DNA from: Takakia lepidozioides
Taxonomy: Eukaryota; Plantae; Bryophyta
Assembly: GCA_030704615.1 (NCBI GenBank)
Contig: CM060734.1
Span: 6,014,001-6,078,000, forward strand
Direction: 5' to 3'
Length of the DNA stretch: 64,000 bases
Shown here one piece after another: positions 15,775 to 58,503 of the stretch. Numbering within the stretch: position 1 is the stretch's first letter; each line of letters starts with the position of its first letter. The notes beneath the pieces are model-generated. The model was given only the letters and a program-made list of their open reading frames with translations, was not told the DNA's origin and ran no database searches. Made by a program: the position numbers and the translations under genes.

Positions 15775-16425
15775 GGAAATGCGGCACCGCATTTCATTTT
15801 TTTCCATGCAGCGATTTTCGGCAGCTCCCACTCCTCCGTTCTGGTCGTAACGGAAATGCGGTACCGCATTTCCTTTCTTGACATGGCATTTCCATACTTC
15901 GAATTCCAAATGCGGCACCGCATTTCCATATTCGACCTTGAATTGTCCAAGCATGTCCAATCGCCAATGCATGTCCATGTCCGTTTTGGAAATGCGGCAC
16001 CGCATTTCCGTGTCCGTCATCGAAATTTTGTATTGGACAATGGAATGCGGCACCGCATTTCCATCCAGCACAATGGAATGCGGTGCCGCATTTCTGTCGA
16101 AGGGTCTGGAATTGGACAAACAACGATGTCCGTTTTGGAAATGCGGCACCGCATTTCCATGTCCGTCATCGAAATTTCGTATTGAACAATGGAATGCGCA
16201 CCGCATTTCCGTCCACCACGATGGAATGCGGTCCCGCATTTCCGTCGAAGGGTCTGGAATTGGACAAACATCCATCTCCAAAATGGAAATGCGGCACCGC
16301 ATTTCCATGTCCGCCATGGGAATAACGTGTTCGACCTCCGAATGCGGCATCGCATTTCCATTTACCTCAATGGAAGGAGCTGACAATCGGCAAAACTTCC
16401 ATGTCGAAAACGGAAATGCGGCTCC
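15775..16425. repeat. Array of the palindrome GGAAATGCGGCACCGCATTTCC (about 13 copies), 3' of the copy C ParB-MTase gene
   Basis: Directly visible; higher-order unit of about 170 bp. Confidence 0.92.
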
Positions 16426-18629: not shown

Positions 18630-18634
18630 CAATA

Positions 18635-19360: not shown

Positions 19361-19994
19361 CACACCCCTACCAACATGGAGTCGATGTCCTCATCGACTT
19401 GTCCATTTTGTAGAAACGAACATCCAAGTTGTGGCGTCCCACATCAAGGAGTTTGTTTTGGCACCATGGCGTCCCATGGCTAAGAACCAAACCCCCACTT
19501 GACTCTTCTCTCCACTAGCTAGTTCGGCCGACTTCCTCCAAGTCCTGGCCAAGGGTGGAGCTTCTCAAGCTCCTCCCAGTGCACTCTTCTTGACCCACTT
19601 CAGGGCCAAGGATCGATCCTCCCCGAGGATCGAATCGCCTTACTGCAACAACATTTGCTTGCGACCGCTCGTGATGTCGCTTTTGGCATCACCTTGAGCA
19701 AGGGTTCTCCTTGAACCCTTTTTTACTAGGAAGATAACCTTGAACCAACCGTGCGCCTCAATCACTACAATTGGGTCCGCTTTGGGGGGGCTGCTATTTC
19801 ATGAGCGGCATGAGCATGAGCGGGAAAAAAAAAACATGAGCGGGCCATTGTCTGTCCACGGAAATAGGGTTAGGAGGCACGGAAATAGGGTCATGTGGAC
19901 TCGTCATAGCAATGAAATGCAACATTTTATTGCAAATTTGGTGGCAAGCCACGTCTATACAAGTGTGTCCTAAGTGTCATAGCAGGAATGGGAA

Positions 19995-25900: not shown

Positions 25901-26213
25901 CAAGTTTAGGAAGTATGGAGTGCCATGGAACAACAATGAAAACAAATCCAACCAATGCCTAAGAATGACATGCACAAGCAGCCTTCTCCAGAGCTGCCGG
26001 CTTTGCACAAGCATTGCAAACTATCTAAGGTTCACTCAACCGGTAATATGAAACACGATGAACAAATGATTAGGAATTCCATAAGACAGGAAAACAGGGT
26101 GAAATGTTTTGAAGGCACTTCATCTTCTCAGCTCAGCATGGATTTCCTTAATTTTTAACCACTCAGACCTTGATCATTCTTCGCAACAGCTGCTGCTTTT
26201 GCGATGTAGCCAT
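19995..26213 (-). pseudogene. Copy B ParB-like/N6-N4 methyltransferase-like multi-exon gene (disrupted)
   Basis: IPLCRLVSLQVVRP...FYVWDDNHRFLAW (ORF 24352-24774); middle exons 24250-23280; WHLEHLPDCPWYVDLP; DMILLDIPDG; RSPAFIQTLMETCSDVQGRILDLTCGTG|ASMWAGTLSDRHVFAF; last exon ends at 19995; several stops and frameshifts; start codon tentative. Confidence 0.85.
22380..23245. repeat. Intronic tandem array, unit about 146 bp, about 6 copies, with internal inverted repeats
   Basis: TAGGGACTTAGCC recurs at 22481, 22628, 22774, 22920, 23065 and 23202; each unit holds GGAAATTCGGCGCCATTTTCC and its inverse, and GGGACTTAGCCATTTTCGG and its inverse. Confidence 0.95.
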
Positions 26214-26689
26214 ACGCTTCCAGCAATGCCAGGATGAAGATGCAAAAACAAAGCGAAAGCGAAAGCAAAAGCAAAAGCGAACAAAGCGAAAGCAGAAGTG
26301 GCTTGCCTGAGAGTACTCGGCTTCAGTTGGCGCGGGTTGTGAGCAAGACACTGGAATCTCCTGCTGGAGCTTAAGTTTGGCCATGCGAGAGATTGGTCGT
26401 CGTCCGTAGTACAAAGCTTTCAACTTCCGCGCGGCCTGGATGTGAGGTCTCTCTCAGGAGAGCTACGCCCTTCAGGCGGCATAAGTCCCAGCCAAAATGG
26501 AAAAAGATCTCAGTTTTTTGGGGTACATGCCACGAATAGAAGTTAATCCAAGATTAGCATCAGATTTAGGGTACGTATCGAGGAAGCCATGTGTCGCCAG
26601 CCCGAATAAAAACGGACGGCGGTGGACATTTAATGCCCAACTACGCAATTAAATGTCGGATGAAGCCCTCCCTGTTGGATGAAATATGA

Positions 26690-27600
26690 TGCAACTCGGC
26701 CCGGAATTTCCAACGTAGAGGTAATTCGGAGCGCAGATGGATGGAAATCCGGCGCCAGATTTCCATCCGCCAGGTACGGCGGCGCGCAAAATTTCCGTCA
26801 TGCAGGTAATTCGGAGAGCAGCAGGATGGAAATATAGCGCCGAATTTCCATCCTGCCAGGTAGGGCGTCGCGCGAAATTTCCGTCTCGCAGGTAATTCGG
26901 AGCCGGATGGATGGAAATCCAACGCCGGATTTCATCCTGCCAGGTAGGGCGGCGCGCGAAATTTCCGCCACACAGGTAATTCGGAGCCGGATGGATGGAA
27001 ATCCGGCGCCGGATTTCCATCCGCCAGGTTGGTCGGAGTGCGGATGGATGGAAATTCGGCGCCGGATTTCCATCCTGCCAAGTAGGGCAACGTGCGAAAT
27101 TTCCGCCACGCAGGTAATTCGGAGCCGGATGGATGGAAATCCGGCGCCGGATTTCCATCCTGCCAGGTAGGGCGGCACGCGAAATTTCCGCCACGCAGGT
27201 AATTCGGAGCGGATGGATGGAAATCCGGCGCCGGATTTCCATCCGCCAGGTTGGTTGGAGAGCGGATGGATGGAAATTCGGCGCCGGATTTCCATCCTGC
27301 CAGGTAGGGCGGCGGGCGAAATGTCCGCCACGCAGGTAATTCGGAGCCGGATGGATGGAAATCCGGCGCCGGATTTCCATCCTGCCAGGTAGGGCGGCGC
27401 ACGAAATTTCCGCCACGTAGGTAATTCGGAGCGGATGGATGGATTTCCATCCGCCAGGTTGGTCGGAGAGCGGATGGATGGAAATTCGGCGCCGAATTTC
27501 CATCCTGCAGGTAGGGCGGCGCGCAAAATTTCCGTCATGCAGGTAATTCGGAGCGGATCGGGATGGAAATTCGGCGCCGAATTTCCATTTGCCAGGTAAA
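26690..27600. repeat. Tandem array (85-bp and 53-bp subunits) built around the palindrome GGATGGAAATCCGGCGCCGGATTTCCATCC
   Basis: Directly visible; lies between the two divergent genes of element B. Confidence 0.95.
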
Positions 27601-27759
27601 TCGAATCGCCGAATTACCTTCCTGCGGGTAATTCTGAGCATGGCCGCTTGGTTTTTCGGAGAAAAACAAACTAAACTGTTAGTTTTGTGGCTGAATTCCA
27701 CTTTTAGACACGTTTTTCATGGAATCCTTGACTGCTAGAGGGAAATCCGAACGGCCTCG

Positions 27760-29450
27760 GACGGAAATTCGGCGCCGTTTTTCCATCCTGGGAGGTTTTT
27801 AAATCGTCCAGTTTTGGGCCTCACCACCCGACCGGACTTCCTTTGAGGGGGCCCGGATGGAAATTCGGCGGCGAATTTCCATCCGGGGGATGGTCTCTGT
27901 CGGACAGGTGCCGGCCTCTACGCCCGAGGCGACTTCGTCCGGGCGTCCTCTGTTGGATATTCGGTGCTGAATTTCCATCCGGGGGTTGAAATGTGACGGC
28001 CAGGTGCCGGCCACTCCCCCCTCCCCGACTGCATCCGAACCACCCCGCACGGAAATTCAGCGCCGTTTTTCCATCCTGGGAGGTTTTTATATCGTCCAGT
28101 TTTGGGCCTCACCACCCGACCGGACTTCCTTTGAGGGGGCCCGGATGGTCTCTGTCGGACAGGTGCCGGCCTCTACGCCCGAGGCGACTTCGTCCGGGCG
28201 TCCCCTGTTGGATATCCGGTGCCGAATTTCCGTCCGGGGGTTGAAATGTGACGGCCAGGTGCCGGCCTCTCCCCCTCCCCGACTGCATCCGAACCGCTCC
28301 GCACGGAAATTCGGCGCCGTTTTTCCATCCTGGGTTATATCGTCCAGTTTTGGGCCTCACCACCCGACCGGACTTCCTTTGAGGGGGCTCGGATGGAAAT
28401 TCGGCGGCGAATTTCCATCCGGGGGATGCTCTCTGTCGGACAGGTGCCGGCCTCTACGCCCGAGGTGACTTCATCCGGGCGTCCTCTGTTGGATATTCAA
28501 TGCCGAATTTCCGTCCGGGGGTTGAAATGTGACGGCCAGGTGCCGGCCTCTCCCCCCTCCCCGACTGCATCCGAACCGCCCCGCACGGAAATTCAGCGCC
28601 GTTTTTCCATCCTGGGCGGTTTTTATATCGTCCAGTTTTGGGCCTCACCACCCGACCGGATTTCCTTTGAAGGGGGCTGGATGGAAATTCGGCGGCGAAT
28701 TTCCATCCGGGGGATGGTCTCTGTCGGACAGGTGCCGGCCTCTACGCCCGAGGCGACTTCGTCCGGGCGTCCCCTGTTGGATATTCGGTGCCGAATTTCC
28801 GTCCGGGGGTTGAAATGTGACGGCCAGGTGCCGGCCTCTCCCCTCTCCCCGACTACATCCGAACGGCCCTGGATGGAAATTCAATGCCGTTTTCCCATCT
28901 GGGGAGGTTTTTATGTCGGCCAGTTTTCGGCCTGCCCCCCCGACATGACTTCGTTTGGGGGGGCCTGGATGGAAATTCGGCGCCGAATCTCCATCCAGGG
29001 GATGCTCTCTGTCGAACACGCGCCGGCCTCTACGCCCGAGGCGACTTCATCCGGGCTTCCCATGTTGGATATTCGGTGCCGAATTTCTGTCCGGGGGTTG
29101 TAATGTGAGGGCCAGGTGGCGGCCTTTCCCCCGAGCCGACTGCATCCGAACGGCCTCGGATGGAAATTCGGCACCGTTTTTCCATCCGGGGAGGTTTTTA
29201 TGTCGGCCAGTTTTCGGCCTGACCCCCCGACACGACTTCCTTAGGGGGGATCCGAATGGAAATTCGGCGCTGAATTTCCATCCGGGGGTTGTTCTCTGTC
29301 GGGCAGGTTCCGGCCTCTCTGCCCGAGGCGACTTCATAGGTGCGGCCCCTGCTGGATATTCGGTGCCGAATTTTCATCCGGGGGTAGTAATGCGACGGCA
29401 CGGTGCCGGCTTCTCCCCTTCAGCCGACATCATCCGGACGGCCCCCCACT
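27760..29450. repeat. Tandem array, unit about 288 bp, about 6 copies, each with about 3 GGAAATTCGGCGCCGAATTTCC-type palindromes
   Basis: Units start near 27761, 28049, 28303, 28586, 28873 and 29160. Confidence 0.93.
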
Positions 29451-29681
29451 TTCTGACTGCATACCGTTGGCAGTTATTGCGCAAAGACCAGGGGCCGCAT
29501 TCCTGAGACAAGGTTCATTAACACTTTGACTGTGGATTTTTGAGATAGTTGGCTCCCTGGATTTGGATCAGGCTTCGTCGCTCGGACAAATCGGCACCAC
29601 ATTCCTTCCCATCGCTGCATCCCCCTTCTACCAGGGAGCTTGCCCGCACGCCATCCTGGGAGTCTTGTGTGCACATCTCCC

Positions 29682-32600
29682 ATGGTGGAAAACCCGAGCG
29701 CTACAGTGTACTGCCCTCCTCACGAGCATAGAGCTTCATTTCCGTGCAGAGGGGACATCTGCCGGGTGATGGAGAAATATCTGTGCGTTCGATACCACCT
29801 GAAACCGGGGTCGGTTTTTTTGGAGGAGGAAAGGAAGGACTCAAACGGCGTTGTTGTCGAGAGTATTGTTGTGCTCCACGATGATTTTGGCGATGGCAGG
29901 GAATGACGAGTTCCACCATCAGACAGCGTCATATACAGGGCTGTTGGGGACTTCATTTGCCCGCCAAATGCACCTTCTATCCTGGCGCCTTCCACGAAAC
30001 AATCCGCGAATCAAAGAGTGTCTACCTCAAAGAGAGAAGTCCGCAACGAAGTAAATCCAGAGCCGAACCCATCCATGAAGACGAGCGAGAACCGGGTTGT
30101 TCACAACCTGTCCGACTCAGACGAGGTCATGGAAGTTTCGAGGTCGTCCTGGAGATCAGGCAAGTCCTCAATGGACGTCAATGGACGAGGGAGTCATATT
30201 CCCAGCACGAGCACCGCAGTTCGATCTATTCTTGAAATTCTGCGAGGGCTTCACATGGAGGGACACCACTCGGAGCTGGCCGGGCTGGACTACAGCAAGT
30301 TTGCAATTAAATCGGTTACATGCCTTCCCGCAGACGTCGACGGTAATATCTTCTTTGAGTTCCCTCCTCGGACGGACTACTCGAGGGCGTCCGGAATGTT
30401 GACAGATATGGATAGAAAACATGATGGTCATCCTTGGTGCGTCACCAAAACCACCAGCATGAAGATGCTCGATGGTGTGCGGGTGCGCTACGTTGTTTGT
30501 GCGGGTGCGTTGCGGTGTTTCTCCCCAACTTGCTTCCACTTTAAATCCAGAGGTCACAGGAATGAGACCGATTGGACAGGCACAGCTCATCAACCATTTC
30601 GTGATCAGGTGAAGGTTCCGAACTCCACATTTAAGTGTGCGCATTGCCAAGAACCACCACACTGCATGTCTGTTTGTAATGCCAAGCAGTTCTATGTGTT
30701 GCACCGTTTCCCTGACCTCACCCGAGCTTGCATACACGTTGGTTCCCATTGTTACAAATTGGCGAGGGGGAACTCGCGGGAGGCTGCCCACGAGGCAGAG
30801 CAGCTCGTTCAGGAAGAGGTTAAGTTGAGACCGGGTGCCAAACTCAAACAGATACAGCTCCAAGCCGCCCATAAGATGGCCTTGGCCAGAATTATGTCGG
30901 AAGACAGCTCCGATAGAGTTCCTCTCGATGAGAAGGAAATGGAGGCATTGCTGGAGTCGGTGTCCCACGTATGTTCACCGAATGTCCGAAACCACATTGT
31001 CTCATGCAAACAGAAAATTGGGCGTGGCTCGGATATGCACTCCATTCTGGAGATGAAGCGACGATGTGGATATGACTACATTCATGGAAGTAGGTTTCCA
31101 GGACAAGGGACTGAGGCAGATCGTTGTTTCGTATTCAAAATGTCCACGTGTGGACCTGGCAGTGGCGTTGAACTGGTCGACAGGATGACGAGTGGGGACT
31201 TGTCAAACAGTTGGGTCATGTTCGACCATATCAAGCAAATTACAAATCACCAGTGGGTGACAATGGGTGCACATGTCTACGACACCCACTGCAGGATGCT
31301 AATAACAATTGCTATTTGTGAGATAAAACGAGAGGACACACAATCGGAGATGCTTCTTTGGCAGGGAATAAACGAACAGATGGCCAAGGCGGGATTGCCC
31401 CCTCCCAATTTCCGTGGTTTCATGGCGGACAACGCACAAGCAAATTGGGCTGCCATTCGAAGGGTGTACGGGCAAGACCGCAATGTTCCCATGGAAGGCA
31501 AGGAGAGATCTTGTGGGTTCCATTTTCTGCAGAGCCTTTCACAGTACACAACCAGGCTTGTGGCGCCAGATTTCAGAGAGGAGCACCGTTCCATGTGTCT
31601 TGCGTGGAAGCGCCCTCCCACCTTGGATGATGCAGAGACACAGTTTGCATGTATACGGGCTTGGTGGACATCGTCAGGTGCTGTAAGGAAATCAGACGAG
31701 GGAGCAATGGTCAGTTGGCTTGCATGGTGGCATTATCGTTTCCTCTAGTTCGGTGACTATATGCGGGAGGTGAGTTGCACGAATTCGCGTCCCGTTGAAT
31801 ATTATTCTTGGCATTATTTGTAACTTGCTTGTAACCTCAACATGTGCTTGTGCAGGAAATGTGTCTCGACTCCGACACCAACATGCCCACGACAAACATG
31901 GCCGAATCAGTGCATTCTTCCTGGCGTGCCTTCTCTGCGGCGCATCTGCTGGACATCCTCACTGCCACAACGGAGGACATTGTGAGGTCAATTATGCAGC
32001 AATGCAGGTACAACGAGTTCTTGAAAGGGAAACAGTGGGGCTTGGGGCCGGACACGCAGGAAATGCTGATGCGGACTGCCTCCAGATCGAAGAATCCTCG
32101 GAAGTGGGCGGCGGCCTTGCGAGAGGGCCTTCGGGACACGCCATTGCTTCGAAGATGCCAACATTTGGAATGAGATGTTCATACCCGTCCAGTGAGACAA
32201 AGACTTGACGAGGCACCTGGCGGGGAAGAGGATTCATGGCGAGCTAACAAGAATATTCGCACGCTCCCTCGTGGTCCCGTGATGTTGCCCGAGGAGGTCT
32301 CGTCGAGCACCGCAAGTCCTGCACGTTCAAGATTGTCATCTCCTTTGAGCACAGGGCACGTGCCCGAGGAACATAACAAGCCATCTGTAATAACGCAGTA
32401 CAACATACCCATTGTGGAGACAAGAGTGTCGGAGTCACACTGGAGAATTGCAAGGACATTGCCGGCATTTCGAGGGAAGTGTTGCGCCATTTGGGTGGAT
32501 ACGAGAGCACGCTGTGGTGAGATGATTCGGAGGAACCCACACGGTGCTGTACCTGTACCTTGTTTCAGCGGCAGATTTTTTACTCCCACATTTGCTCACG

Positions 32601-33274
32601 CCACAACGCAGACGTTTTGGTTCTGTAGGCACGACATAATGACCTGTGTATTTGACAAGCCCAAGTACGGGATTCAGGGAATGCCGAAGCCTCCGGGCGT
32701 CTGGCCTGTTGCACCGGGTTGCAGCCTCTCTCAGAATGAGGCGGATGCTCTATCTGCAGCAGGATTTCGAATGGTGCAACGCACAGACGTCCCAGCCCAC
32801 GCATTTCCAGTTCCTCAGACCCAGCCATTGCAGACTGGTCGGTCCAGTAGAGACGGATTGGACAATTCTGCACATCCCACAATGCGATTCGGAAGAGTGA
32901 AGAGACGACACCTTCCCAACAAGTTGAATGAGACTCGGATTGCCAATGCTCTTGGGATGGCTTGCACTATTCAGAGCTCCGTGGACGTACCTCCACCCGG
33001 CCTTGGGCGTGTTTATCGGATGGCAACGGCCGGCTCGGCTGTACGCGACGATGTATACACAATTAAGATTGGAGTGGAGCCGACTTGCAATTGTACGGAC
33101 TTCTCGTTGATGGAAGCAAAGAAGGGTTCAAAGTATTATCCGTGCAAGCATCTGTATTACATTTACCTGAAGAGGTTGAGGATGAACGTGACTATTGATG
33201 ACTTTATTTATGCACCGGCGTTGAGCGTGAACGAGCTGCACAAACTCCTCCTTAGGGATTCCAGAAATCATTGA
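29682..33274 (+). pseudogene. Element B Mutator-like transposase (GCM-like Zn domain, DDE, SWIM) with three premature stops
   Basis: DRKHDGHPWC...VCAGALRC...CAHC...GSHC (GCM-like); VMFDHIK, FMADNAQAN, CGFH, NMAESVH (DDE with CxxH); CNCTDF...CKHLYY (SWIM); intron 31770-31855; stops at 29904, 31746 and 32171. Confidence 0.88.
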
Positions 33275-33419
33275 TGGGGCAAAGGGAATCCTCCATATGG
33301 ATATTTTCAATTGCATTTTCATGTATCAGACTTTTTTTTGCAGTGTAATGAAATGCACCCCAAAACTCTTGGAATGAGGCAATATTCCATTCAAACTGAG
33401 ATCCAACAGAAGCAGTTGT

Positions 33420-33830
33420 GGGGCCATTTCTGGAAAAATGGCGCCAAATTTCTCTATTTTGGGCCGAAAACTGGCTAAGTCCCAACATGCACTGGTACCC
33501 CTGTGTCTGGAAAAATGGCGCCAAATTTCCCTATTTTGGGCCGAAAACTGGCTAAGTCCGAACATGCTCGGGAACGGTGTCTGGAAAAATGGCGCCGAAT
33601 TTCCAGTTACATGGCCCAGAACTGCCCAACATCTGTGCAATCCCCGGCACCATGTACCGAAATTCGGCGTCACATTTCCAAATTTTGGGCTTACACACCT
33701 GTCATGAGGGGACCTATAGCCGCGGAATTCGGCACCATTTTTCGCTAGAGAGACCTATTACCGTGAAATACGTCGCGATTCTTTCCGGTTACGGACCCTA
33801 TTACCGCAAAATTCGGCGCCATTTTTGCAC
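33420..33830. repeat. B-type palindrome cluster in the 3' subterminal region of element B
   Basis: GGAAAAATGGCGCC(A/G)AATTTC and GGCTAAGTCC motifs are shared with the intron array at 22.4-23.2 kb. Confidence 0.8.
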
Positions 33831-34545
33831 ATGTCGTTGGGAATTGGCATGAGCGGAAGACGAAATATCATGAGCACAACTCTCAAAACTACAATTTCCC
33901 CTTCAAGGTGCCGAATAATATATATTTTTTCTGACACATTCCATTAAATTAATGTTTTATAATGTTTTTTATTTTCGAAATTTGTACTTCTGCTCATGAA
34001 AACCGATTGTCTTGCTGCTCCGCTCATGCCGCTCATGCTCATGAAATAGCTAACCTCCGCTTTGGAATGCTGGCCTGAGGTACGGGAACACGCCGAAACC
34101 GCACTATGACTTTGTCCCGAGGCTACACAATTATAGTACGTGAACGGAAGCACGTAGCTTCCGCATTAGCCCGCACTACAAGGCAACCCCCTCGGTAGCG
34201 CACTTATAGTACGCGCACGCGCCAGGTGCGCACTAGCACGTGAACTCCCAACGAAGGTGCAAGTTTCCTTGCCCCTTGGGTGGGAGTCACCCGATTTCGG
34301 CACTACACAAACACACGATTAATCCAATTTACCTCTCCCACTTTGTAAGCTTAGCATGCATTCTACACACTAGCCAACCATACCATGCATCACCATTCCA
34401 AACAAAATAGGACGCACAACATTTGGAAACCATTTCTTTTATAACAAAATTTGTACAATACAAGTTTTTGCAATTGGATTCCTGAGCTAGCTAAACCGGG
34501 CTAAGCATGCATTTCCTCCCCCACGCTCTAAGGTTGATGTCCCCA

Positions 34546-39801: not shown

Positions 39802-39806
39802 CAATA

Positions 39807-41539: not shown

Positions 41540-41735
41540 TCAAAATGCGGTGCCGCATTTCCGTTGGTCTACGTGTTCACATATTCATGGCATTTGCGTC
41601 CCAGCGTCTCATGAGTTAGAGTGAAAACGGAAATGCGGTGCCGCATTTCCGTTAAGGCAGCTTTGAGTTGCATCTTGAACGGAAATGCGGTTTCATGCTT
41701 GACATGCAAACCGGAAATGCGGCGACGCATTTCCA
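41540..41735. repeat. C-type palindrome cluster (AAATGCGGTGCCGCATTTCC, 4 copies) upstream of the copy C gene
   Basis: Directly visible; ends just before the putative LTR start at 41756. Confidence 0.85.
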
Positions 41736-47175: not shown

Positions 47176-47793
47176 CAACGACGCAATGGCGTGAGCGTTG
47201 CACGTGAGCGCGCGAGCGTACGCTCACGCCAGCTGACGTGGCGTGAGCCTGCACACATGCTGACGTGGCGTGAGCGTCATGTCAGCATGCTGATGTGGCG
47301 GTAAATGATGACGTGGCACTGTCCGTCAACTGCCACGTCAGCATTAACATGCGCCGCCTATAACCGTGGATGGTCCTATGACCGTGGAATTAATGCAGGG
47401 AATCTTGCCTAAATAGAATCAAGACGAGCGTTGAGGCCTACAATTGCAGCATCCAACATTGTGCAATTACAAATGTTTGTTTCACTTTTACAATTACGAA
47501 GACGACAAAATATCCTCACAAAGTGTGCGCCATAAAGGCTGCCACGAGAAGACTTCCTCCCTCCTCAAATAACAATGAGAGTTATGATCATCTTCAAAAG
47601 ATGATTGTAGTGCATAGCGACAGCAAGACATGTAGACTTCGAACGGTGCAATGACAAATGTGCACTACCTAAAAGTTGTCACTCAGACCTCACTCCGTAT
47701 AGTTGGAGGCCATATCATTGCACAGCCGACGAATTGATGTGAATTACACATTTCAAATCATGGTCATCCACATACCACATTACATAGTTCATG

Positions 47794-50700
47794 CTACCCA
47801 TGTGTTGTATCCCGCTGCAAAAGAGTATCGACCTCGTTGAAACTCATAGTGGCCTGGTGAATGAAGTTGTCACGTTTGGGATCGCAAACCATCCTCCTCA
47901 AAAATATGAAATACAAATGTTTGCAGGGTATGAATTTACCTCTCTTGCCCAAACTGGTTGATAGCATATTCACAAAATCAGGACATGTGCAATTGGGGAA
48001 ATTGGAAACCGTGATGTCGTAGGTCCTGTCATGAACAGCAGATGTGGAAGTGATGATTGTGAATACCCGACCATATCCTGGATCGGGTACTTCCGTGGTG
48101 CTTCCGACACGAGCTTGGAGCATTCTTGCGGACTCCACTTTGCCAAAGTGTTCAGCGGTTGGAGGGAAACGCCGAACGAGCTTTCCATCTCGTTTGGTTG
48201 GCCACAAGTCAGGATTTGCCGGGGGGACCCGGGAGGACGCAGGAGTAGTAGCACATGCATGGAGTTGGGGTTGTCTCGCAAGGGAAAAACCTGCCTCCTC
48301 CAGCATTTCAATCTCCTGAAAGCTGAGATGTGTTCCCACCTTCACGGGCCAAACGGTTGGAGGAGATGGCTTCATCACTACGGAAGGACGCACAGTTCCA
48401 TGCACACATCTGGCACAATCATCTGCGCAGAACCAGAACTTGTGGTTCTTGGCTTCTGGTTGACCGTATGGACGCATCAAGCCCGTGAAAGTCGGAGCAG
48501 GAGTTCGGGCACCACCTCTGGATATAGATGAAGTGCACTTCTCGAAATTAGTTGCCCTGATCGCTGTACATTTCACACGAGACCCGACACTTGTGCGTTC
48601 TATGTGCCAAACGTGGTCGGGGCATGCGGACTCAAGCACATCAAGGGGGTTGTTTCTCTCCTGCACCATTTCAGTGGCACGGTTTGATGCTGGAGCTTGC
48701 CGTCGTGTTGGAGGTTCCTCCACAATGGAGGTTCCGGACACGGAGCTGTCATGCAGGGGAACACGAGGCTTCGAGAAGTTATCACGGTCTGCCCTGTGGG
48801 AATCTGAATCCGAACCAGGTGGAGTGTTCAATTTCCTCTTACAGGAGCCGAATCTCTCCTCCCCTTCAAGATGTGGAACTCTAGAAACAAGTGGCGTTCC
48901 CTGGGCATACATGCTCACCGCCCGTGCTATCTTGATTGGATCCCCAGATCTGTTTGCAGCACGCAACATCAACTCCGATTTGTCCGGACCCTTGCCACCA
49001 ACCCCACCTCGTAAGAAATCACGGTATCGGGTTTGTTGTTGCAAGGCACGTATCAAATCATCTGTTGTTGCCACATACAAATCCCGACCTCGTTTCCCAG
49101 ACTGCTGCAACCATGCATTGTGCACAGTTTCTGCCAAATTGCAAGATGGCATGTCTGCCATTTCCTCAATGGACATGTTCTGCAAAGAGGATAACCACAC
49201 TTCAGAATAGTGCACAGGAAACAACATAAAGAAAGCAATGAGTCAAAAATATGGAAAGCAAATGTATGAATAAAGCATGAAATAGAAGCCTCGTACCATT
49301 GTCATGGCTGCTCCCCACTGTCTATACCGGAAGTGCCAAAACGCCAGCCAATCTTCCAATGCTCTCATACTCTCAAGTGATGCAGCTCCAGAAGAGAACC
49401 ACCAGGCACGAATTGTCTGGAACAAAGTGTCCGCCTCCTTCATTGTTCTAGCATCTTTGTACTCTTTGCACAATTTACGGTGCTGAGTCTGCATCTCTGG
49501 TTTGATGTCCGACTTTGTATGTTTTTCCAGAGATTGTGTCCAATGGAATAGACATGTACGCTCTCTTCCTGGCATAGGCACTTTTGGGTCGCCCGATCCG
49601 AAGACAATACGAATAGCATTGAAATTTGCTTGAGCACTATCCGCCATGAAACCTGCGAAATTTGGAGATGGCAGCCCATGGCAGCCCATGACACGTATCA
49701 GGGAATTCCACATGAGCTTCTGGGATTCCGTATCCTCGGATTGCATGTCACAAACTGCAATTGTCATAACTCGTTGGTACACTGGATCGTAGACATGACA
49801 AGCCATTGTCGTCCAATCCTTCACTCGTTTCACATGATCAAACATAAGAAAACAGTTCTGCAAGTCCCCAGTCTTTGCATCCGCTTCACGAGGCTAACCC
49901 CACTGCCCTCCCCAACAGTCGACATTTTGAAAAGAAAAACTTTGATGGCACCTTGACCTGGGAATACATTGTCCTGGATGTAATCGTACTTGCTCAGTCG
50001 TTTCAATTCCAAAATATTGTCTATGTAGCCTCTGATCCCAGAGCCCATTCTCAATGCATTGATCTGATGCCGAATGTTAGGTGAACTTAAAGTGGAGAAA
50101 TGATCCATGACCAGGTCCAATGCTGCACCGTCAAGTTTAGTCCCCACAGAATCTCCTTCACTCAAAATATGGCTTTCCAAGAAGGACTTGCTTGCGCCAA
50201 GAGCAATTGCAGATGTTGTTGCGGATGGGTTTCTCCCGAACTCCTGTTTGATCAACCTCGATACTGTCTCAACACTCTCCCTGTAATCCCCCTTCGAGAC
50301 AGGATGGTTATGGAATCCAAAATGCACACAAGCTCTCGTCATTGTATTCAAACGGTGGACAACATAGTACATTCTTGCTCCGCAGAGCGCCAAGCAGGAT
50401 GGCACAAGTTTGCAGAATTTGCAGACGAAAGTGTTTGCCGGTGGAGGGGCAGTCCCAGGCTGAAATGGATTCTCCGCCAGACCCTCCCATTCGCTTTGAT
50501 TATGAACTCCAGACTGAAGAAAGTGTCTGCAATTCAAATTATCACACCTAAGGTGTCCATTGCAAACTGTCCTCCTGAAAACAAGCTTGTCATCATTCTG
50601 AATATTGGATGTTTTTGTTCTGCACCACGGGTGCCCGTCGTGTTTCTTGTCCATTCCATGCATCATGATTGTTACACCTCCAACTCGCGGAGGAGGAGGC

Positions 50701-51308
50701 AGCTCGAATAGGATATCGCCATCAAAAGTCTCCGGCAAGAACTTCACAGGCACCTGCTTCAAAGATTCCCAATCAATTCCCCGCAACTCACTTTTGAATC
50801 CAGCCATTCCTCCCATCGCCCGCAATTTTGGAATGACACTACAAATCTCTTCTTCATCAGCTTCTGCAACCACAGTAGGAAGGACTGGATTTGGAATTTC
50901 ACTTATGTCATCATCGGAAGAATCCGAAAGCTCAACGATTGGAGTGGAGGAAGTCTGTTCTTTTTTCACCACCACCTCCCTCTTGTCTTCAACGACCGAA
51001 GCAGCAGTCCCGGGCGTCACATATGACCCAAGGGACTTTCGCCGAGGCTCTCCAAGTACTCTGTATCGACCAGGACGCACTCTCCACTGGCTGATATGAG
51101 CCGTCTCATCACGGTTTTGGAAAGAATATTTCACCAACTTCCCTTTCAGATCGTAAACCTCTTTCTCCAAAAAGATGGAGCCATTCTGCAGCTGAAAACG
51201 GGTAGCCAAGACATGTTCCAGAACAATTGCAAATCCATTGTCAAGGACTTCCTGGGAGAACGGCACTGGTTTGTCGTCTGAGAAGAACTCCGCTTCAGAG
51301 GAAGCCAT
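47794..51308 (-). pseudogene. Element A Mutator-like transposase (GCM-like, DDE, SWIM) with one frameshift
   Basis: DKKHDGHPWC...VCNGHLRC...CKFC...HFGFHNHP; LMFDHVK, FMADSAQAN, CLFH, NLAETVH; CTCPDF...CKHLYF; GT-AG intron 49296-49180 at the same position as in B; frameshift near 49870. Confidence 0.9.
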
Positions 51309-52163
51309 CTTCCTTCCTCGAGTATGTTTGTACCTTGCTATCGCAGATCTAGTGTAAATCGGTTTACTGCTGTCTCCAGAACACAGTTGAAGAATGAGCA
51401 GAGCATATGGCGGAGGAAGCTCAGATAACGACTGTGCATATTCTGTTATTCATTCCAGATATGCAGCCGTCCATTTTAATTACTTTTCTTGTGGGCCCAG
51501 TGGTCAGAGAATCCATAGGGGCAGTGTCGGCAACTGTTAAACCGTTAATCAGAACCTCATCAATAAACCCAATAACAAAGCCGACTTCCTGGAAGCATGC
51601 CACAGGATCCGAGAATGGGATTGCAGATTAAGTAAATGTATCTATATACTACTACCAATGATCATGCGCACCTGGAAAGTTCCAAATGTGCAACGAATGT
51701 GGGGTTTGGATAACAAGGATGACCGTGTATGATATTCCAAAATTTGTCATCAAACTCTCGTTCATTTATATTTATTTGTTTAAGACTGCGCATCAATTTC
51801 TGGGATTCGCTGTTCTTTTTAAATATTGAACCAGTTATAATTTAGAACACGCCGTTTTGTTTTGGGCGGCACACGTCAGACATCCATAACTGAATACGAA
51901 CAGCTGTACACCAATTGCTGGCATGTGCACTAATAACGAAACGACTATGTGTAACGGTCACGCGGGAGGGAATCCGATGCTTCTAGAGACACGCAAGAAC
52001 ACAGGCAATCCCGCAAGAAATCGAGAGTCACTGCGTTTTTCTACTTTTCGCGCTTAGAGGGAGAGTGGTAGTCAAGCTGGAGAGGGTTCCTTCTAGAATA
52101 CGAAAGAGAAGAAAGTCTCTTTATTTTACTTCCCTTAGAGAGAGACGCAGAGCAAGAGAGAAA

Positions 52164-55100
52164 ATGACGAGGCGTCGTTTGTTGGAGAACACAGGGCCAA
52201 GGCAGCAGGTGAACGCGGAGACTGATTCACAAGAGCAGACGGAGACTGAGGCAGCGGCTGCGACACAGTCGGCGATAAGAGTGCGCCAGCCTGTGGAGGC
52301 AGAGATGAATCGCAGGGACACTGAAGAAGGTGGAAGCACGCGGAACGCCGAACCTGAAGAAGGTCAAGAAACCCTTGCGCAGACAGAAACTCCAGCAGAT
52401 GTGAGAGGGAAGAGGAAAGCTGCAGAAGGGGATCAAATTTCAAAACCTAAGAAGGTGCCAGTAAGTTTTATCATATAGTCTGTGTGATTGCCTTTCAAGG
52501 AGTCCTTCCTCTTCCATTCTTTAGCAGGAACTACTGAATCGCGAGCGTCGTTAACGCCATTCGATTCTGCTCATGAGATTTATGTACCTATGTGTTTGAA
52601 GAGAGAGTCTGCACTTACTATTCTCCCTAAACTACACTGAATGTCGTTGCCGCCAATCAGTTGCACATATATGTCATTACACAACACCGATCCGGCAGGT
52701 TGTTATCTTTTGTGATTGTCGTTAACGCCGTTCGCTATCGCTCTCACTTTTGTTTTGAATACGGCAGTCTCGGCTTTGCATGTGTAGATTGTGCTGAATT
52801 CTTTCACACCATTCATGGTGAGTTTCCTTGATACAGAGTGATTGTCGTTACCGCCATTCACTATTTGCAAATCACTTAGTCAGAACTGAATGGCATCGTG
52901 CAGAAAACTGTGAGGTCGAAGCCTACAGGATCAGAGGGGAAAGGATCTGGAGATGGGGACGAGTCCGCAAAAAGCTCAGAGAATACAGATGAAGCAGATG
53001 AATCCGAAGTGCACTACCTTGACAAGGTGAAAGAACTCATGTCATTCCAGAAGGTAAACTCTCAGGAGGTTATAAGGGACATGCTCGTATCTGGAGGGCG
53101 TCTGGACATACCTCTGTGCCGGATGATATCAATGCCTGTTGTGCGTCCACCTCTTTCCCATGACATAACAAAATTGGAGAGTGATTTTGTGCATGGATAT
53201 AGACTTGGTGCACAAGTTTTTTATGTGTCACTGACGGATATAAATGGGAAAAGCACATTAGTTTCTCCAGAGATCAGTGATAACTGGGATGAGTGCTGGA
53301 AAGATGCCAATGAGGAGTTCGAGCTGGGCCTCATGATGGGAAAGAACACCCAGCAATTTTGCAACCACATGTTCTACGTCTGGGACGGCAACCACCGATT
53401 GCTGGCATGGATGGGATACATTCAGAAACACCATTCGAAAGACAAAGACAAGCATGTTGCTGTGGAGGCAATGGTTTTGGATCCAGGAAACGACATCGCT
53501 AGGCTTCTTACAGCTATGCACGACGTGAACAAGTAAGTCATCCAGGAGATTTCATTCCCTCTGTAGTGTCTTGTTGATCCTCAAAAAACAGTGTTAAGGA
53601 ATGCAATGTTTTCAATGTTTTTGCAGATCGACAGAGAAATCGCATGTGACAACAAGCTTGGTTCACACACTATTCCGAATTCAGAGGATTGGTCTGATGA
53701 AGCTGGATGATTTTCGGACAGTACTACCACCCAATATCATCAAGAAGTGCGAAACAGGAAGAGCTGCAGGCACTTGGTATTCTTTGACACGAGAGGCGTT
53801 TCTGGAGTACATGTATGCGGTAAGCCCGAGTCTGTAATCTGTTTACTTTTCGAATACATGTTTAGAGTCCCTTCGGAGCTAATCACTACTTGAATGAATG
53901 CAGCAAGAACTGGCAGAGGCAGCTGAGAAGGGAAAATCCGAATATTACCGCACTACACCAGAGGAACTAAGGACATCAAAGGGTGTGGAAGCTGCAATAA
54001 AGAAGGAGTTTGAGATGCGAAGAACCAAATTGATGTCAGCCTTCGGAAAGCAGCTTAGAATAGTAGATCCTGGACTTGGTCCTGAGTTCCTTCAGCAGAT
54101 CAAAACACACTATGACAAGCATGTGCATCCGGAGATGCAGCAGGAGAAATTGCACCGGCTGGCCATATCGATGGTCGACCCACAAACAAAAATAAGGTGG
54201 CTGGAGATATGGAACTCAGATCAAACAGTAAAGGACTTGAATCAGTTCCCAAAGAGCACCATACAGCCTGGCACAAAGGTGGAAGGAATCAGTGATTTGG
54301 TGTTTGATAACTGGCTCCACAAGGCTACATTTTGGAGTCAGGTGTGTATTCGAACATGCTGTTTCTTCTCTTCAAGTATGTGATGTGTTTCTTTTTTGCA
54401 ATTCTGACAAATATACTATTTGCAGCTCGAAAAGCGCGCCGTCATTGTGCTGGATCAGACTTTGAAGGACCTGAACATTGCGATTGTTTCCCCTCCCCAA
54501 ATGTCATTGGAGGCATACATAAGGAAGTGGAGAGGTCTCACCTGGAGATACTGTTTTTTCCGGGAGTTCTCCAAAGATGGTAACATTTTACGGTCCAACG
54601 ACTTTGACAGTCAGGTTGGAGGAGAGTGGGCCATGATGCGAGTTGTGTACAGGTGAAATGTCATACTTGAAACTCTACTGTTTTTTTGGGAAAAATTGTG
54701 GCTTCATATGGATTGCAATCTTAGATCCAGATTGAATGTCGTTGACGACATTCACTTCTTTGTCTGAGTCATTCTAAGCGAGTATATGAATTCACCTGGT
54801 TAGGATCTAAGGGTGCAATTATATTGTCCCTGATTAGAATTGATAATGTCCTTGAATGGCGTTGACGACATTCACATACGGAGTTGTTGTGTGGTCCTCA
54901 AGGTTATTTAAATTTTTGTAATGTCCATAGAGGTTACAATGAGGGTTGATCACTTCATTTTGCTGAATGTCAATGCAGACATTCAGTTGTTCTGCATTGT
55001 TTTTCCTCTTGCGATGAATATGGAGGCTTGATAAGCTCTGTTTTAAGAAATCCAAAGTGAATGTCGTTGACGACATTCACAGCTGTGTCTGTATTATTCA

Positions 55101-57796
55101 AAAACGACAAATTCAATTTTCATGGATTGGGGAGCTAAGTAATTGGTTTCTTTTTTGTATTTTTGTGAATGGCGTTGACGCCATTCACATACAGTGATGT
55201 TGTGAGGTCCTCAGTGATAGGTTCGTTATGAATGTGCATTGAGTTTTCCTGGATGGTTCCTTACTCAATTTTTTTATTTCCATCCTGTGATTTTGCTTCA
55301 TTTCAGTAATAATTTGGCTTCATTCTTGAATGTCGTTGACGACATTCACTTCTATTCTGTGTCATTTCTAATCGCTTATTTGCATTCACCTGGATTAGGA
55401 TGTATTTACAGTGTCATGGAATGGAATGTTCTGAATGGCGTTGACGACATTCATATCTGGAGCAGTAGTGTGGTCCTGAAAGGTCCTTGGAGCAGTTGTC
55501 AGAGCCATTTCAATCCATGTTTTATTCTTTCTGTTCTACTTGCATCTTACTCACTGAGCGCTTTTGTGGGTTGGGATTCATCTCCTTTTTTCAGGTACAC
55601 GAAATATGTGCTTATGGAAGGAAATCACCTGAGCGGAATTCCCGACTATCTTGACATGTGGTCGGACCCTGCAAACGATCCAACCATGTATACTGCAGGG
55701 ATATTGAAGGACTGGAGTCCTTCTCACTTCAGAGACTGTGGGTGGTACCTTGACTGCCCACCTGAGCACACGACCTTTCAAGAACAGCATATGAAATACT
55801 TGAACAATAACGCTGAGATGCTGGCGCCTTTGACTGACGAAGAGTATCAACGAAACATAGCAACCTTGGCTGCCAAGGAGCCTGATGCTCAGGGAACGCC
55901 GCAGAAGGGAAAGAAGGCGGGCCGCAAACCAAAAGACAAGGCTGTTGATGTCATAGCCATCTCACCAGCAAAGCCAAAGGACAAAGACAAGTCCAAAGAG
56001 AAGGAAAAGGACAAGGGGAAGGAGAATGAAAAGGAGATGGAGAGTGGGCAGGACTTTAGTGCTGGAAGATATACCCGCACTCTTCAGTGCGTGTTCGATG
56101 CCAAGCCACACCCTTCCCGTTCTGATTCAGCAGGAGAGATGAAAATTGTTAATGAGGGTTGGCTTTCGATGATGCAGAGTCGAAAGAGAGGATACACTGG
56201 GGTGCCATCCCCTACCTGGGACAATATAATCTCATTCCTCAATCTGGTGAGAATTCCACTTTCTTTCCTTTTTCTCTGAATGTTTCGTTGGCAGTATTTC
56301 AGTCTCGTTCTTTGAAAACATTCTTGCCATCGTTCTTATAAAAAACATGTCTGTTGCAGGTGAGCACAGGTCCCACCTTCGTGTGCGGTGTGCAGAAAAC
56401 TTATGCGGCCGACATTGTCATTCTCGACATTCCGGATGGCCAGGCTGTGCCAGAAGTTCTTCCAAAGGGCAAGACGCCAGGGTGGAACAAATTCGAGGAC
56501 AACTACTGGAGTTGGGTATTCGGGTTCTGTAACAATTTCCTCTCTGATGCAGGGACACTTCTGCTTTTTCAGTCATGTGACAATGATAGTCGTCGGGCAT
56601 TGGCATCATACCTCAAGTCTTCAGGGTTTGAAGTTTTGCGCACATGGAATTATGTGAACAGCCTCTACCTTGTGAAAGGGGGTTTCCCTGGTCAGCTGGT
56701 ATGCCGTCTGCCTTCTGCTTATGCTTGATCATGAGTTTTAATTTTCTCTGCAGCTCCACTCTAGTAGAATGTTTTATGATCGACACCGATCATCAACGAT
56801 TCATGGTTTTTTGGTGTCAGAGTTCTGAATAGCCGATGTACACACTTCCACTTTAGATTGTGTTTACCACACTAACCTGCTATCTTTGGCAGACGAGGAT
56901 GTTCGAGGCGATCTGCCTGCGGAGGATTCGCACATCAAAGACACCATCCTCCATCCGCAGCTTTGAGATTTCTGACCAGGGTTGTTTCGTCAACCCCCCC
57001 TATGAGCCCCATGTCGATGACATTTTGTACAACTTCATGCAGTCCAGTCAGACTCTGAAGAGACCAGATGGCACTCCCTGGAGAGGTGTAAAGGAAAAGT
57101 CACCAGCATTCATGCAAATACTGCTGGAGTCATGCAGCCACCGCTCTGCACGGGTGGTCGATCTTTCTGTGTCCACAGGTTCGTTTTCTCCCTTCCGAAT
57201 TGGTTTCCTTTCAACAGTTTCATCTGCTTAAATCCCCTCCTCCAAACTGCTTATGTTCTCCTGTCTGGTGCAGGAGCAACTTACCACGCATGCAAGGCAG
57301 GCGGAAGAAGCCTTTTTGGTATGGAGGGTGATTCTGACCTCTACAACACAGTGCTCCTCCCCCTTTTGTCTGGCTCCACTTCAGGCACACAGACTGATCG
57401 GATTCATATTCAAATGATGACGATCCCGAAGATAAGCAGGTCGACAACGACTTTTCATGTGAGTAAGTACTAAACCCTCTTTGGGAGTCATACTCAATTT
57501 CTCGATAACATCAAAGTTACAGTAATAACTTTTTCAGGCTGTCTTTCAGGAAAGCCAGCGGTGGATCTTCAGGAGATACAGTCATTTCTGGCGAGTCTGT
57601 TTTCGACAGCCCCCTTTCCAATTTTTTGCTCCCTGTTTATGCCGAAGCAATGACACTTCACGCGTCCGAGTCCCTATCCCCTGACTTTTTAGTGGCCAGC
57701 CGTAGGTGTATCCAGCGTGGATCCGGTGTTCTAAAATACTTAGACTTAGATGCAGAGGAAGAGGGGATACATTGTACTGACTCTGAGTCAGACTGA
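52164..57796 (+). CDS. ParB/Srx-like plus beta-class N6A/N4C DNA methyltransferase-like fusion protein, 10 predicted exons
   Basis: Phase-compatible GT-AG exons 52164-52460, 52904-53532, 53627-53819, 53904-54341, 54426-54652, 55595-56246, 56360-56698, 56893-57178, 57274-57462, 57538-57796; open through the whole MTase-like domain; a probable 1-bp deletion near 57397 diverts the frame to a stop at 57473 (1086 aa as is, about 1169 aa if repaired). Confidence 0.85.
54734..55452. repeat. Intronic array of the 20-bp palindrome GAATGTCGTTGACGACATTC (7 copies)
   Basis: Copies start at 54734, 54854, 54965, 55059, 55167, 55328 and 55433; four more degenerate copies lie in intron 1 (52543, 52639, 52714, 52840). 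Confidence 0.9.
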
Positions 57797-58503
57797 ACTG
57801 TATTCTTTTAATATTCATTTTCATATTATCTGGAAAACGTTGAATCCCCTTACTCTACCGTAGTTGTTCCTTTAGAACAAATAATAATCACAGAATCAAC
57901 TTTCGTTTAAATTGCTATATGTATGAATCCATCTCACAAACCTTCCTGACTCTTCTCATATCCATTGTGCATTCATCTACACTGTATTCATGCGTGCTCC
58001 ATTCATGAAAGCTTCCTTTGTACAACATCCATTGTACATTCATCCTCTGTACTCTTTAATCCACCCCACAAACCTTCCACACTCATTTCATATACTTTGT
58101 GCATTCGTCAAAAGATTTGGTCATGCATCTTCCTGTCATGAATTTTTGTCATTGCTCAACATCCATTATACATTCATCCATTTTACTCTTATCCATCCGT
58201 CATTCATCCATCTACATAGATTTTTCAAACTCATCCATCTGTTTATCATCCAACTGTACATTCATCCATCATTTATTCAATGCCTTTTATTATGTCGTCC
58301 AGCTTGTTTCCGCGGTAAAGGGTGCCAATCCGCGGGAATACACTCCACTTCTTTCTGGGTGCGTGGTGACTCGGCCTCCACGTGTGATGACGTGGACTGA
58401 GCCCCGTGACGTGGCATTTGCGCAAGGTGACGTGGCGTGAGCGCAGTCGCGCTCACGCGCTCACGTGACCAGGCTCACGCCGAGGCATCCCTGCAGAACG
58501 GAG

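Follow-up and report, generated by a model that had tools for sequence, protein, structure and literature searches.

CG-containing dyad arrays with subfamily-specific arms as candidate self-recognition sites of Mutator-like transposons in Takakia lepidozioides

Two complete Mutator-like transposons, A and B, each with a divergent accessory gene, lie in the 64-kb stretch of Takakia lepidozioides DNA analysed here (the window). The CG-containing dyads that they carry in arrays are under selection in element A, recur with the same geometry in related loci and differ in their arms by subfamily. We propose that a predicted dimer of the accessory protein may well bind these arrays and would thereby keep its subfamily active in the face of host CG methylation, a proposal that we hold to be about evenly balanced. 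Altogether, the best reading appears to be a self-recognition system resembling those of VANC and TnpA and built on a putative ParB-type binder.

Element A is flanked by the 11-bp direct repeat CAGAACGGAGC (47166-47176 and 58494-58504) and element B by the 10-bp TSD TCCGCTTTGG (19776-19785 and 34056-34065), both lengths falling inside the 9- to 11-bp MULE range; the inverted ends of A are degenerate and the TIRs of B are clear (Table 1). The two transposases share 37% identity. A DDE-like core and a CxxH motif were read by eye, and profile searches matched a SWIM finger at E values of 0.007 (A) and 0.015, both below the cut-off, while no Pfam match to MULE, ParB or MTase families was obtained on the window exons. 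The accessory gene of A is open and spliced: three introns are skipped in contigs of run X8, whose RNA status is a guess, and one of these contigs omits exactly the intron at 54653-55594, with GT..AG ends. The accessory gene of B has an in-frame stop ahead of its ParB motif, where DGNHR has become DDNHR, and that of D is devoid of its middle exons, with the break at a gypsy insertion.

Table 1. Coordinates of elements A to D, their genes and their dyad arrays in the window
Feature	Position	Strand	Content or basis
C accessory-gene 3' stub, then dyad array	3846..4997	+	Stub 92% identical to D
D array of GGAAATGCGGCACCGCATTTCC	15775..16360	.	3' of D accessory gene
D accessory gene, 3' part	16421..18630	-	5' part ~39803-41000
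Element B, complete Mutator-like transposon within gypsy element	19786..34055	.	TSD and TIRs
B accessory gene (ends approximate)	20100..25958	-	
B orthologous intron	22349..23284 (936 bp)	-	Homogeneous 146-bp repeat; 12 one-sided motif copies, orientation alternating
B intergenic arrays	26719..29443	.	84/85-bp and 96/288-bp units; full dyad GGAAAT(T/C)CGGCGCCG(A/G)ATTTCC
B transposase-like gene	29907..33274	+	Divergent from accessory gene
B subterminal one-sided motif copies	33429..33830	.	77-bp unit
Three D-type dyads	41541..41734	.	5' of D accessory gene
Element A, complete Mutator-like transposon within gypsy-type retroelement	47177..58493	.	Direct repeats and inverted ends
A transposase-like gene	47794..51449	-	ORFs; Cys/His-rich N-terminal part, DDE-like core, SWIM finger
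A accessory gene	52164..57473	+	9 exons (open model, 1074 aa): ParB/Srx fold, then a helical middle and an amino-MTase-like domain
Four further A-type dyads, intron 1	52543..52859	+	52543, 52639, 52714, 52840; flanks unrelated
Exon 2, ParB/Srx-fold domain	52904..53532	+	R44, DGNHR, C-terminal N; AF2, structure matches, conservation
Exon 3, candidate DNA-reading module	53627..53819	+	Conserved helix-helix-basic loop-WY-helix
A intron 5 array	54653..55594 (942 bp)	+	Dyads 54734, 54854, 54965 (degenerate), 55059, 55167, 55328, 55433
Exons 7-9, beta-class amino-MTase-like domain	56396..57473	+	Motif IV DIPD, motif I VVDLSVSTG

The dyads share the geometry N6-CG-N4-CG-N6 around the core CGGCACCG, and a scan of the window found them restricted to the elements. 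Intron 5 of A carries six copies of GAATGKCGTTGACGMCATTC plus a degenerate seventh, and the motif has 19 strand matches at 10 places in the window, for 0.03 expected from shuffles. All dyads of element A are located inside its accessory gene, at a distance of 3-5 kb from the element ends, which carry other repeats (GCGTGAGC/TGACGTGG). The array is an alpha-beta dimer present three times. As previously suggested, its palindromes persist and are far more conserved than the spacers, although the latter, described as strongly diverged, are still homologous (matching spacers 64-82% identical). In the triplicated dimer 39/40 motif columns are invariant versus 64/161 ungapped spacer columns (Fisher p=2e-12, for a motif chosen after it had been seen). 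Across family copies from two samples (three of the four runs being one sample), none of 40 listed variable sites, out of 54 variable, and none of 5 indels fell inside the motifs, which make up 140 of the 811 bases (p=4e-4 in a hypergeometric test and 0.0024 in a control with random windows), in contigs where paralogous units may be misplaced. The dyads of A are thus under selection, being more conserved than their spacers both within the element and across family copies, one of the comparisons that the earlier note had set as a test. The CG is intact in all A half-sites (18/18), the spacers carrying 7 CG per 802 bp, and the A core, TTGA/TTAA, deviates from the GYRC core. By contrast, the copy at 55167 does not have the paired changes ascribed to it: its T>G at position 6 is common to all three beta copies, two of which are still asymmetric. 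A compensatory pair was rejected, as the beta class was asymmetric to begin with and the 55167 copy regained symmetry through one additional substitution, A>C.

The introns of A and B are indeed orthologous, with the same phase, TACAG/GTAC context and position in the protein alignment, a comparison confined to these two elements because D is devoid of the flanking exons and C is a 3' stub. That each intron array has its own palindrome holds for A, with GAATGKCGTTGACGMCATTC, but the B intron contains a one-sided variant (GAAATT-CG-GCGC-CA-TTTT(T/C)C-like; 0/12 copies with both CGs). The 22-mer palindrome attributed to it is 3-4 mismatches away from the closest of these copies, and the perfect dyad is located in the intergenic arrays at 26.7-29.4 kb. 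As the B intron repeat is young and homogeneous, it is uninformative on selection. C and D carry the third motif reported earlier, GGAAATGCGGCACCGCATTTCC. Nor is this intron special: A has four copies in intron 1, and B, C, D and the related loci use other non-coding regions, namely promoters, other introns and 3' regions.

Dyad arrays are more widespread in the family than first noted. Families of CG-N4-CG dyads with at least 4 copies were found de novo in 18/47 related loci, 15 of them with intact CG; over the 47 non-redundant loci, dyads with intact CG numbered 54 versus 8.5 after shuffling. Scans at spacings 2, 3 and 5-9 gave at most one locus with intact CG, and spacings 0 and 1 gave families in 26/47 and 18/47 loci (10 and 8 with CG). 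Many of the 29/47 loci with fewer than 4 copies are short or decayed, yet L009, L079 and L080 are long. A central GCAC predominates in the related loci and in D. In the INDEPENDENCE context, copies from different regions of one element have the motif in common but not the flanks: pairs of such copies with flank z>4 were 0/18 in A, 1/39 in B, 0/28 in D, 0/20 in L006, 0/11 in L013, 0/6 in L020 and 0/15 in L038. Related flanks between regions were seen in L073 (7/14), L027 (3/8), L044 (2/4) and L066 (2/7). There are at least 8 arm types in the family, and they track the protein phylogeny (a Mantel test gave rho 0.77 over 20 elements and 0.64 over 17 loci, computed without L053, a tandem repeat with a different core and no CG, on a tree without L068 and L069, which have short coverage). 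The grouping of A, B and D is weakly supported (93/58). Motif type tracks protein phylogeny as had been inferred, but shared descent alone predicts the same agreement, and since transposase and accessory gene co-descend, it cannot identify the binder.

The designation of the accessory gene as a ParB-MTase gene is supported for both folds. A ParB/Srx-type N-terminal fold is supported by the predicted structure of exon 2 (AF2 pLDDT 94): all 12 matches in a structure comparison (VIA) are ParB/Srx-type (best Z 8.0, rmsd 2.5, 90 aligned), and the best Foldseek matches listed are Noc/ParB (E 0.007-0.04). For a full-length relative, the best structural match is KorB, with a middling Z of 7.5 and a high rmsd of 5.7 over 176 aligned residues, extending beyond the N-terminal domain into the helical region. 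At the pocket, DGNHRLLAW (G 78/86, N 86/86, H 80/86, R 74/86) replaces the GERRxR phosphate-binding motif (PMC11790492), which is absent from the accessory family. Neither a 16-bp parS site nor, among the scanned element ORFs, a ParA-like family was found. Profiles gave no HTH match after the ParB domain, where the exon 3 helices are conserved; PDB sequence searches with the ParB and MTase exons returned nothing meaningful. A dimer prediction with two copies of residues 90-455 of a liverwort relative, run with the alignment unused, scored 0.00 and returned no verdict.

The C-terminal part is supported as a beta-class amino-MTase-like domain with a degenerate catalytic motif. As in beta-class amino-MTases, motif IV comes before motif I and a SAM-binding loop is present; 7/12 liverwort relatives match the C-terminal part of PF01555 (best E 9e-6, under the gathering cut-off), a profile match to M1.HpyAVI was obtained (E 0.002), and A exon 7 has an atlas score of 0.90. 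No Pfam family scored above cut-off for the accessory protein, and a homolog search with the MTase-exon alignment found none among longer proteins and one near-length match. Motif IV consists of D (20/21), then M/L/I, P (21/21), T (13/21) or S (6/21) and G (20/21), with the variants DIPD (A, B), DILD (D) and DVPF (one fern protein). The catalytic (D/N/S)PP(Y/F/W) motif is absent, and the aromatic residue of DPPY is missing.

We propose that an accessory-protein dimer would read the two half-sites, whose arms would distinguish one subfamily from another while the CG-G(C/T) core is common to all; the putative reader is the helical module encoded by exon 3, which follows the ParB domain. Local tandem duplication would multiply sites in any non-coding stretch, spacers drifting while sites are retained. 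The bound protein may then shield the element from silencing or license transcription, as VANC and TnpA do, and its degenerate MTase domain would more probably engage SAM or the CG cytosine than act as a standard DPPY enzyme. A bolder and rather unlikely version is that a ParB-MTase fusion of prokaryote type was captured by a clade of Mutator-like elements in seed-free land plants and became a putative nucleotide-gated clamp, which would load at the parS-like CG dyads of its own element, spread along that element, and mark or shield CG cytosines (by non-canonical amino-methylation or base capping), so that host 5mC silencing would be blocked per subfamily. If true, this clamp would be a bacterial-centromere-like self-recognition module in eukaryotic chromatin.

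The dyads could instead be bound by the Cys/His-rich N-terminal domain of the transposase, the accessory gene being a passenger or cofactor, which we judge unlikely. The C/D half-site includes ATGCGG, which we take to resemble a GCM site, element B has copies 200-600 bp from one end, and the transposase co-descends with the accessory gene; nevertheless, profile searches gave no GCM or WRKY match, the ends of element A are without dyads, and the dyads cluster within and upstream of the accessory gene. MULE transposases do have WRKY-GCM1-type DNA-binding domains (PMC1702500), and the AtMu1 transposase alone activates cognate copies, although its peaks are located at TIRs (10.64898/2026.08.24.746577). 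It is quite unlikely that the accessory protein binds the dyads not as an anti-silencer but to repress its own gene in the manner of KorB or DndB, or to assist transposition by spreading or bridging. Its closest structure, KorB, is a long-range repressor (PMC11790492); DndB, which the DGNHR motif matches weakly (3/86 members, best E 0.066), represses in an ATP-dependent way according to PMC10853773; and sites lie between the divergent promoters and in the introns of the accessory gene. Against both roles, amplified and subfamily-divergent motif clusters are the signature of known anti-silencing systems, and element A, with its open and spliced gene, has kept its CGs, most of which are deaminated in decayed relatives (47/232 half-sites intact).

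It seems very improbable that the dyads are maintained without an element-encoded reader, whether through a host factor, through gene conversion among tandem repeats or through intramolecular repair of hairpins or cruciforms. Perfect copies do have the capacity to fold (-8 to -10 kcal/mol), all arrays arise via tandem duplication, and AT-rich repeats yield dyad families at other spacings too. However, mismatched dyads are kept in 2/3 beta and 4/4 intron-1 copies, and the unpaired 4-bp centre is itself conserved. Moreover, the two A half-site variants join freely and folding of the intron-1 and B-intron copies is weak (-2 to -3 kcal/mol), arguing for duplex reading rather than a hairpin. The fixed CG-N4-CG spacing in elements ~40% identical in protein, with arms varying by subfamily, and the restriction of the motif to the elements in this window also speak for a reader encoded by the element.

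The proposed self-recognition by the accessory protein compares with VANDAL/VANC, where a MULE likewise carries an accessory gene and VANC binds short motifs tandemly amplified in introns and intergenic parts (PMC5735166). Here too, introns, intergenic and terminal regions are used, and motifs vary among subfamilies in step with element phylogeny, shared descent confounding this likeness. The VANC motifs YAGTATTAY and AGTTGTMC are words of 8-9 bp, and "palindrom" is absent from the main text of that report, whereas here a 20-bp dyad has two fixed CGs. The accessory protein here has ParB and amino-MTase-like folds, and its named relatives are from a liverwort and ferns. Spm/CACTA TnpA and AtMu1 also gain subfamily specificity from dense motif clusters, and TnpA motif groups mirror Spm phylogeny (10.64898/2026.08.24.746577). 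Unlike the candidate binder here, with prokaryote-type folds and sites internal to A, TnpA goes back to a transposase HTH and has its binding sites at the element termini; "ParB" is absent from that text. With the ParB, KorB and Noc CTP clamps, the system shares the ParB/Srx fold, conserved pocket residues, an adjoining helical domain and clustered palindromic sites on the encoding element (PMC11790492, PMC8494293); it differs by GNHRLL instead of GERRxR, a 20-bp rather than 16-bp site, no ParA-like ORF seen, a fused MTase-like domain and a spliced eukaryotic gene. The beta-class DNA amino-MTases M1.HpyAVI and CcrM and the eukaryotic 4mC enzymes MpDN4MT1 and rotifer N4CMT resemble the C-terminal part in motif order and in profile and structure matches, but motif IV here, D-[ILMV]-P-[TSDE]-G, lacks the aromatic residue of DPPY or TSPPY and lies in a transposon-borne, ParB-fused protein. 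Identity with MpDN4MT1 was rejected, as its motif is TSPPY (10.1101/2021.02.12.428880).

In the sources available, transposon-encoded sequence-specific counter-silencing has so far been characterised only in flowering-plant systems (VANC, TnpA, AtMu1). If true, the present reading would mean that this strategy arose a further time, independently, out of ParB and methyltransferase folds of prokaryote type. The natural series of matched protein-site pairs opens specificity and co-evolution, as well as the part played by a eukaryotic ParB-type domain, to direct tests, and the family might provide orthogonal 20-bp binders for epigenome engineering.

ParB-HTH-Dam fusions are listed for chlorophytes and chytrids in PMC4738411, which describes N6A-MTases as few in land plants; the family of the A and B accessory genes did not appear in the passages concerned, though the supplement may list it, and searches of the openly accessible literature found no description. 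Exact-pattern seeds, of low sensitivity, detected no relatives in viral or prokaryote genome contigs, and a viral fold search gave no match at E<=0.001, its best matches being phage MTases and ParB-named proteins. The family comprises 769 clusters at 50% identity, with relatives in a liverwort and in ferns.

The dyad of element A, a 20-bp near-palindrome of the form N6-CG-N4-CG-N6 (arms N6, centre N4), is a real, selected, and widely conserved feature. On both strands together, the window has 19 matches to the A pattern, falling at 10 places, versus 0.03 by chance; four of these places lie in intron 1 of A, and the A array intron, built from an alpha-beta dimer repeated three times, holds six good dyads and one degenerate copy. 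In a three-way alignment of the A dimers, 39 of 40 motif columns were invariant versus 64 of 161 spacer columns, with the motif picked post hoc, after inspection; an independent variant test was therefore carried out, for which contigs from four sequencing runs (two samples) were placed on 54690-55500. Among the 40 listed variable sites on which this test rests (14 further sites lie outside the listing), none fell within the 140 motif bases, nor did any of five indels (p=4e-4; random-window control, 0.0024). Both comparisons bear out an earlier note, which had proposed that A dyads are kept better than their spacers. Its description of the spacers as strongly diverged is right insofar as they differ, but matching spacers are still homologous (64-82% identity). 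Paired symmetric changes had also been claimed for the copy at 55167; this does not hold, since a single base separates 55167 from the asymmetric beta copies, and the position-6 G is common to all three A beta copies, two of them asymmetric. The CG is intact in 18/18 A half-sites (nine copies scored), and in an element whose accessory gene is open and spliced; the 802 bp of spacer contain 7 CG, roughly one quarter of the number expected. Within 54690-55500, contigs from runs X1, X3, and X4 join 54775 to 55378 and make similar unit-sized skips, which suggests unit-number variation between family copies or mislaid paralogous units.

Beyond the window, 769 protein clusters matched a profile built from the ParB exon; among the named relatives, 41 proteins come from Riccia sorocarpa and several from Adiantum. 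Scanning metagenomes yielded 113 relatives; 80 loci were retained, and removing redundancy brought these down to 47, whose DNA is AT-rich, contains introns, and is mostly decayed. Repeated dyads were first found by an unguided dyad search, and once decayed CG is allowed (TG, CA, and TA being counted as such in the geometry scan), the N6-CG-N4-CG-N6 layout is common to A, B, and C/D. Over spacings 0-10, intact-CG dyads peaked at spacing 4 (54 versus 8.5 shuffled), the runner-up being spacing 1 (25 versus 10.5). Spacing-4 families of at least four copies occur in 18 of the 47 loci, 15 with intact CG, the other 29 loci having fewer than four dyad copies; spacings 2, 3, and 5-9 yielded an intact-CG family in at most one locus each. 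Families at spacings 0 and 1 were found in 26 and 18 loci (10 and 8 with CG), so the family scan is not noise-free. Arms in the related loci are of the types TACTTT, AACTTT, TTCTTT, TTCTCT, TACTCT, AGCATT, and AAAGTT, around a centre that, like that of D, is in most cases GCAC or a deaminated derivative of it, and only 47/232 half-sites in decayed relatives keep the CG.

The array introns of A and B are indeed orthologous, with position, phase, and junction context in common. The palindrome array reported for the B intron is there only as a repeated motif: its 12 copies, alternating in orientation within a 90%-homogeneous repeat unit of 146 bp, are one-sided (both CGs in 0/12), and the full dyad is found in the B intergenic arrays instead. 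The 96-bp intergenic array of B is made of three kinds of unit that have diverged (65% matches) within a 288-bp higher order, with the dyad kept as in the A intron. For C and D, arrays are found on the downstream and upstream sides of the accessory gene, most related loci have theirs upstream of this gene or in intron 1, and others use intron 4 (L038) or intron 6 (L006, L015, L020). In the seven loci with both flanking exon matches (L013, L015, L021, L026, L063, L069, L070), the orthologous intron measures ~70-180 bp, leaving no room for an A-like array. Flanks of copies from different regions are unrelated in A, B, D, L006, L013, L015, L020, L038, and L049, and partly related in L027, L044, L066, and L073. 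Altogether, the site belongs to the element's non-coding DNA and not to one intron, contrary to the special place first given to the orthologous intron.

That motif type tracks protein phylogeny holds as a description: arm types group by clade on a protein tree of 48 rows (without L068 and L069), with Mantel rho at 0.77 (20 elements) or 0.64 (17 loci), L053 being dropped. Co-evolution is not thereby established, because kin share arm labels.

Exon 2 of the accessory gene was modelled with a pLDDT of 94, and its structural matches were of ParB/Srx type in 12/12 cases (KorB: Z 8.0, rmsd 2.5, 90 aligned); Foldseek ranked Noc and ParB top, with weak E-values. The conserved pocket residues are R44, GNHR, and N172, and the motif differs from GERRxR as given in the available part of PMC11790492. 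A full-length liverwort relative was modelled with a mean pLDDT of 63, high for residues 91-450, and its KorB match of 176 residues (Z 7.5, rmsd 5.7) reaches the helical region. Exon 3, a candidate dyad reader by inference, encodes a helix-helix-basic loop-WY-helix that is conserved except that its first helical turn differs between subfamilies. At the C terminus lies a beta-class amino-MTase-like domain that retains the motif I loop; its motif IV reads D-[ILMV]-P-[TSDE]-G without an aromatic residue, which departs from the DPPY consensus, and judged by these residues standard catalysis is doubtful.

We propose as most likely that a predicted accessory-protein dimer would bind the dyad, that clusters would be seeded by tandem duplication and sites persist as spacers decay, and that arms would change in step with the reader, giving every subfamily its own self-recognition. 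By analogy with VANC and TnpA, the most likely outcome would be protection against CG-methylation silencing. An element-encoded protein very probably binds the dyad, and the accessory protein is its probable binder; the whole reading, in which the accessory protein binds with an anti-silencing or activating outcome, is about as likely as not. The transposase as binder is a rather unlikely reading. A KorB/DndB-like repressor or a transposition cofactor is an unlikely role for the accessory protein. A host factor, a hairpin, or neutral conversion is improbable. The two A half-site variants combine freely and mismatched copies fold poorly, which we infer to fit a duplex-reading protein better than a hairpin.

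The system resembles VANDAL/VANC (available part of PMC5735166) and TnpA (available part of 10.64898/2026.08.24.746577), membership in either going beyond the evidence here. It departs from classical ParB-parS in both GERRxR and the 16-bp parS. Other ParB-linked MTases are described in the accessible portion of PMC4738411; "ParB" and "methyltransferase" are absent from the main text of PMC6446971, a term search of the available text of PMC10398659 gave no match, and full-text literature searches (Repbase, subscription journals, and supplements outside their scope) gave, among the matches listed, no description of a ParB-MTase MULE. There is a modest chance that the mechanism is categorically new.

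The window itself is plant DNA with transposons nested in one another. In both A and B, the accessory gene runs divergently from a transposase-like gene whose SWIM match is weak. The spliced model of the A accessory gene is open over 1074 aa, and single contigs of run X8 (RNA status a guess; small share) skip three introns of this gene, among them the array intron, with GT..AG ends. The B gene has an in-frame stop and an altered DGNHR, the broken D gene lacks its middle exons, and C is a 3' stub with 92% identity to D across 392 bp.

Features of the window, with arms and centres of the dyads
Feature	Coordinates	Arm / centre	Remarks
Element A	47177-58493	GAATGT / TTGA	11-bp direct repeats on either side; host, gypsy-type element
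A array intron	54653-55594		
A ends	47180-47350, 58370-58490		Repeated GCGTGAGC and TGACGTGG words, inverted arrangement; candidate transposase sites, distinct from intron dyad
Element B	19786-34055	GAAATT / GCGC	TIRs and 10-bp TSD; host, another gypsy element
B array intron	22349-23284		
B intergenic region	26719-29443		Two unrelated tandem arrays
Elements C/D		GAAATG / GCAC	
LTR pair	18635-19362, 39075-39803		97% identity; gypsy element breaking D accessory gene and holding B
Solo LTR	8491-9216		Same family as B-hosting gypsy element, 89%
B-type TIR start	13114-13260		GGGGGCTGCTATTTC then CATGAGC repeats; candidate far end of D
ORFs	9382-10311, 11737-12381, 15164-15499		No Pfam family; possibly further element-borne genes
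Inverted relatives	13537-13869, 15185-15536		66%
Small dyad cluster	3253-3401		Upstream of C stub; GGATGAAATC...GATTTCATCC type, geometry unlike main dyad

Among the relatives, a transposase is visible in 8/47 loci, many contigs being too short to show it; seven have the same divergent layout as A and B, whereas in L080 (10731-13529) the transposase is downstream of the accessory gene and convergent. The liverwort proteins P0162, P0192, P0194, and P0195 carry the UniRef label "Trimethylguanosine synthase", yet matched the N6/N4 DNA methylase profile; the label is probably a misannotation.
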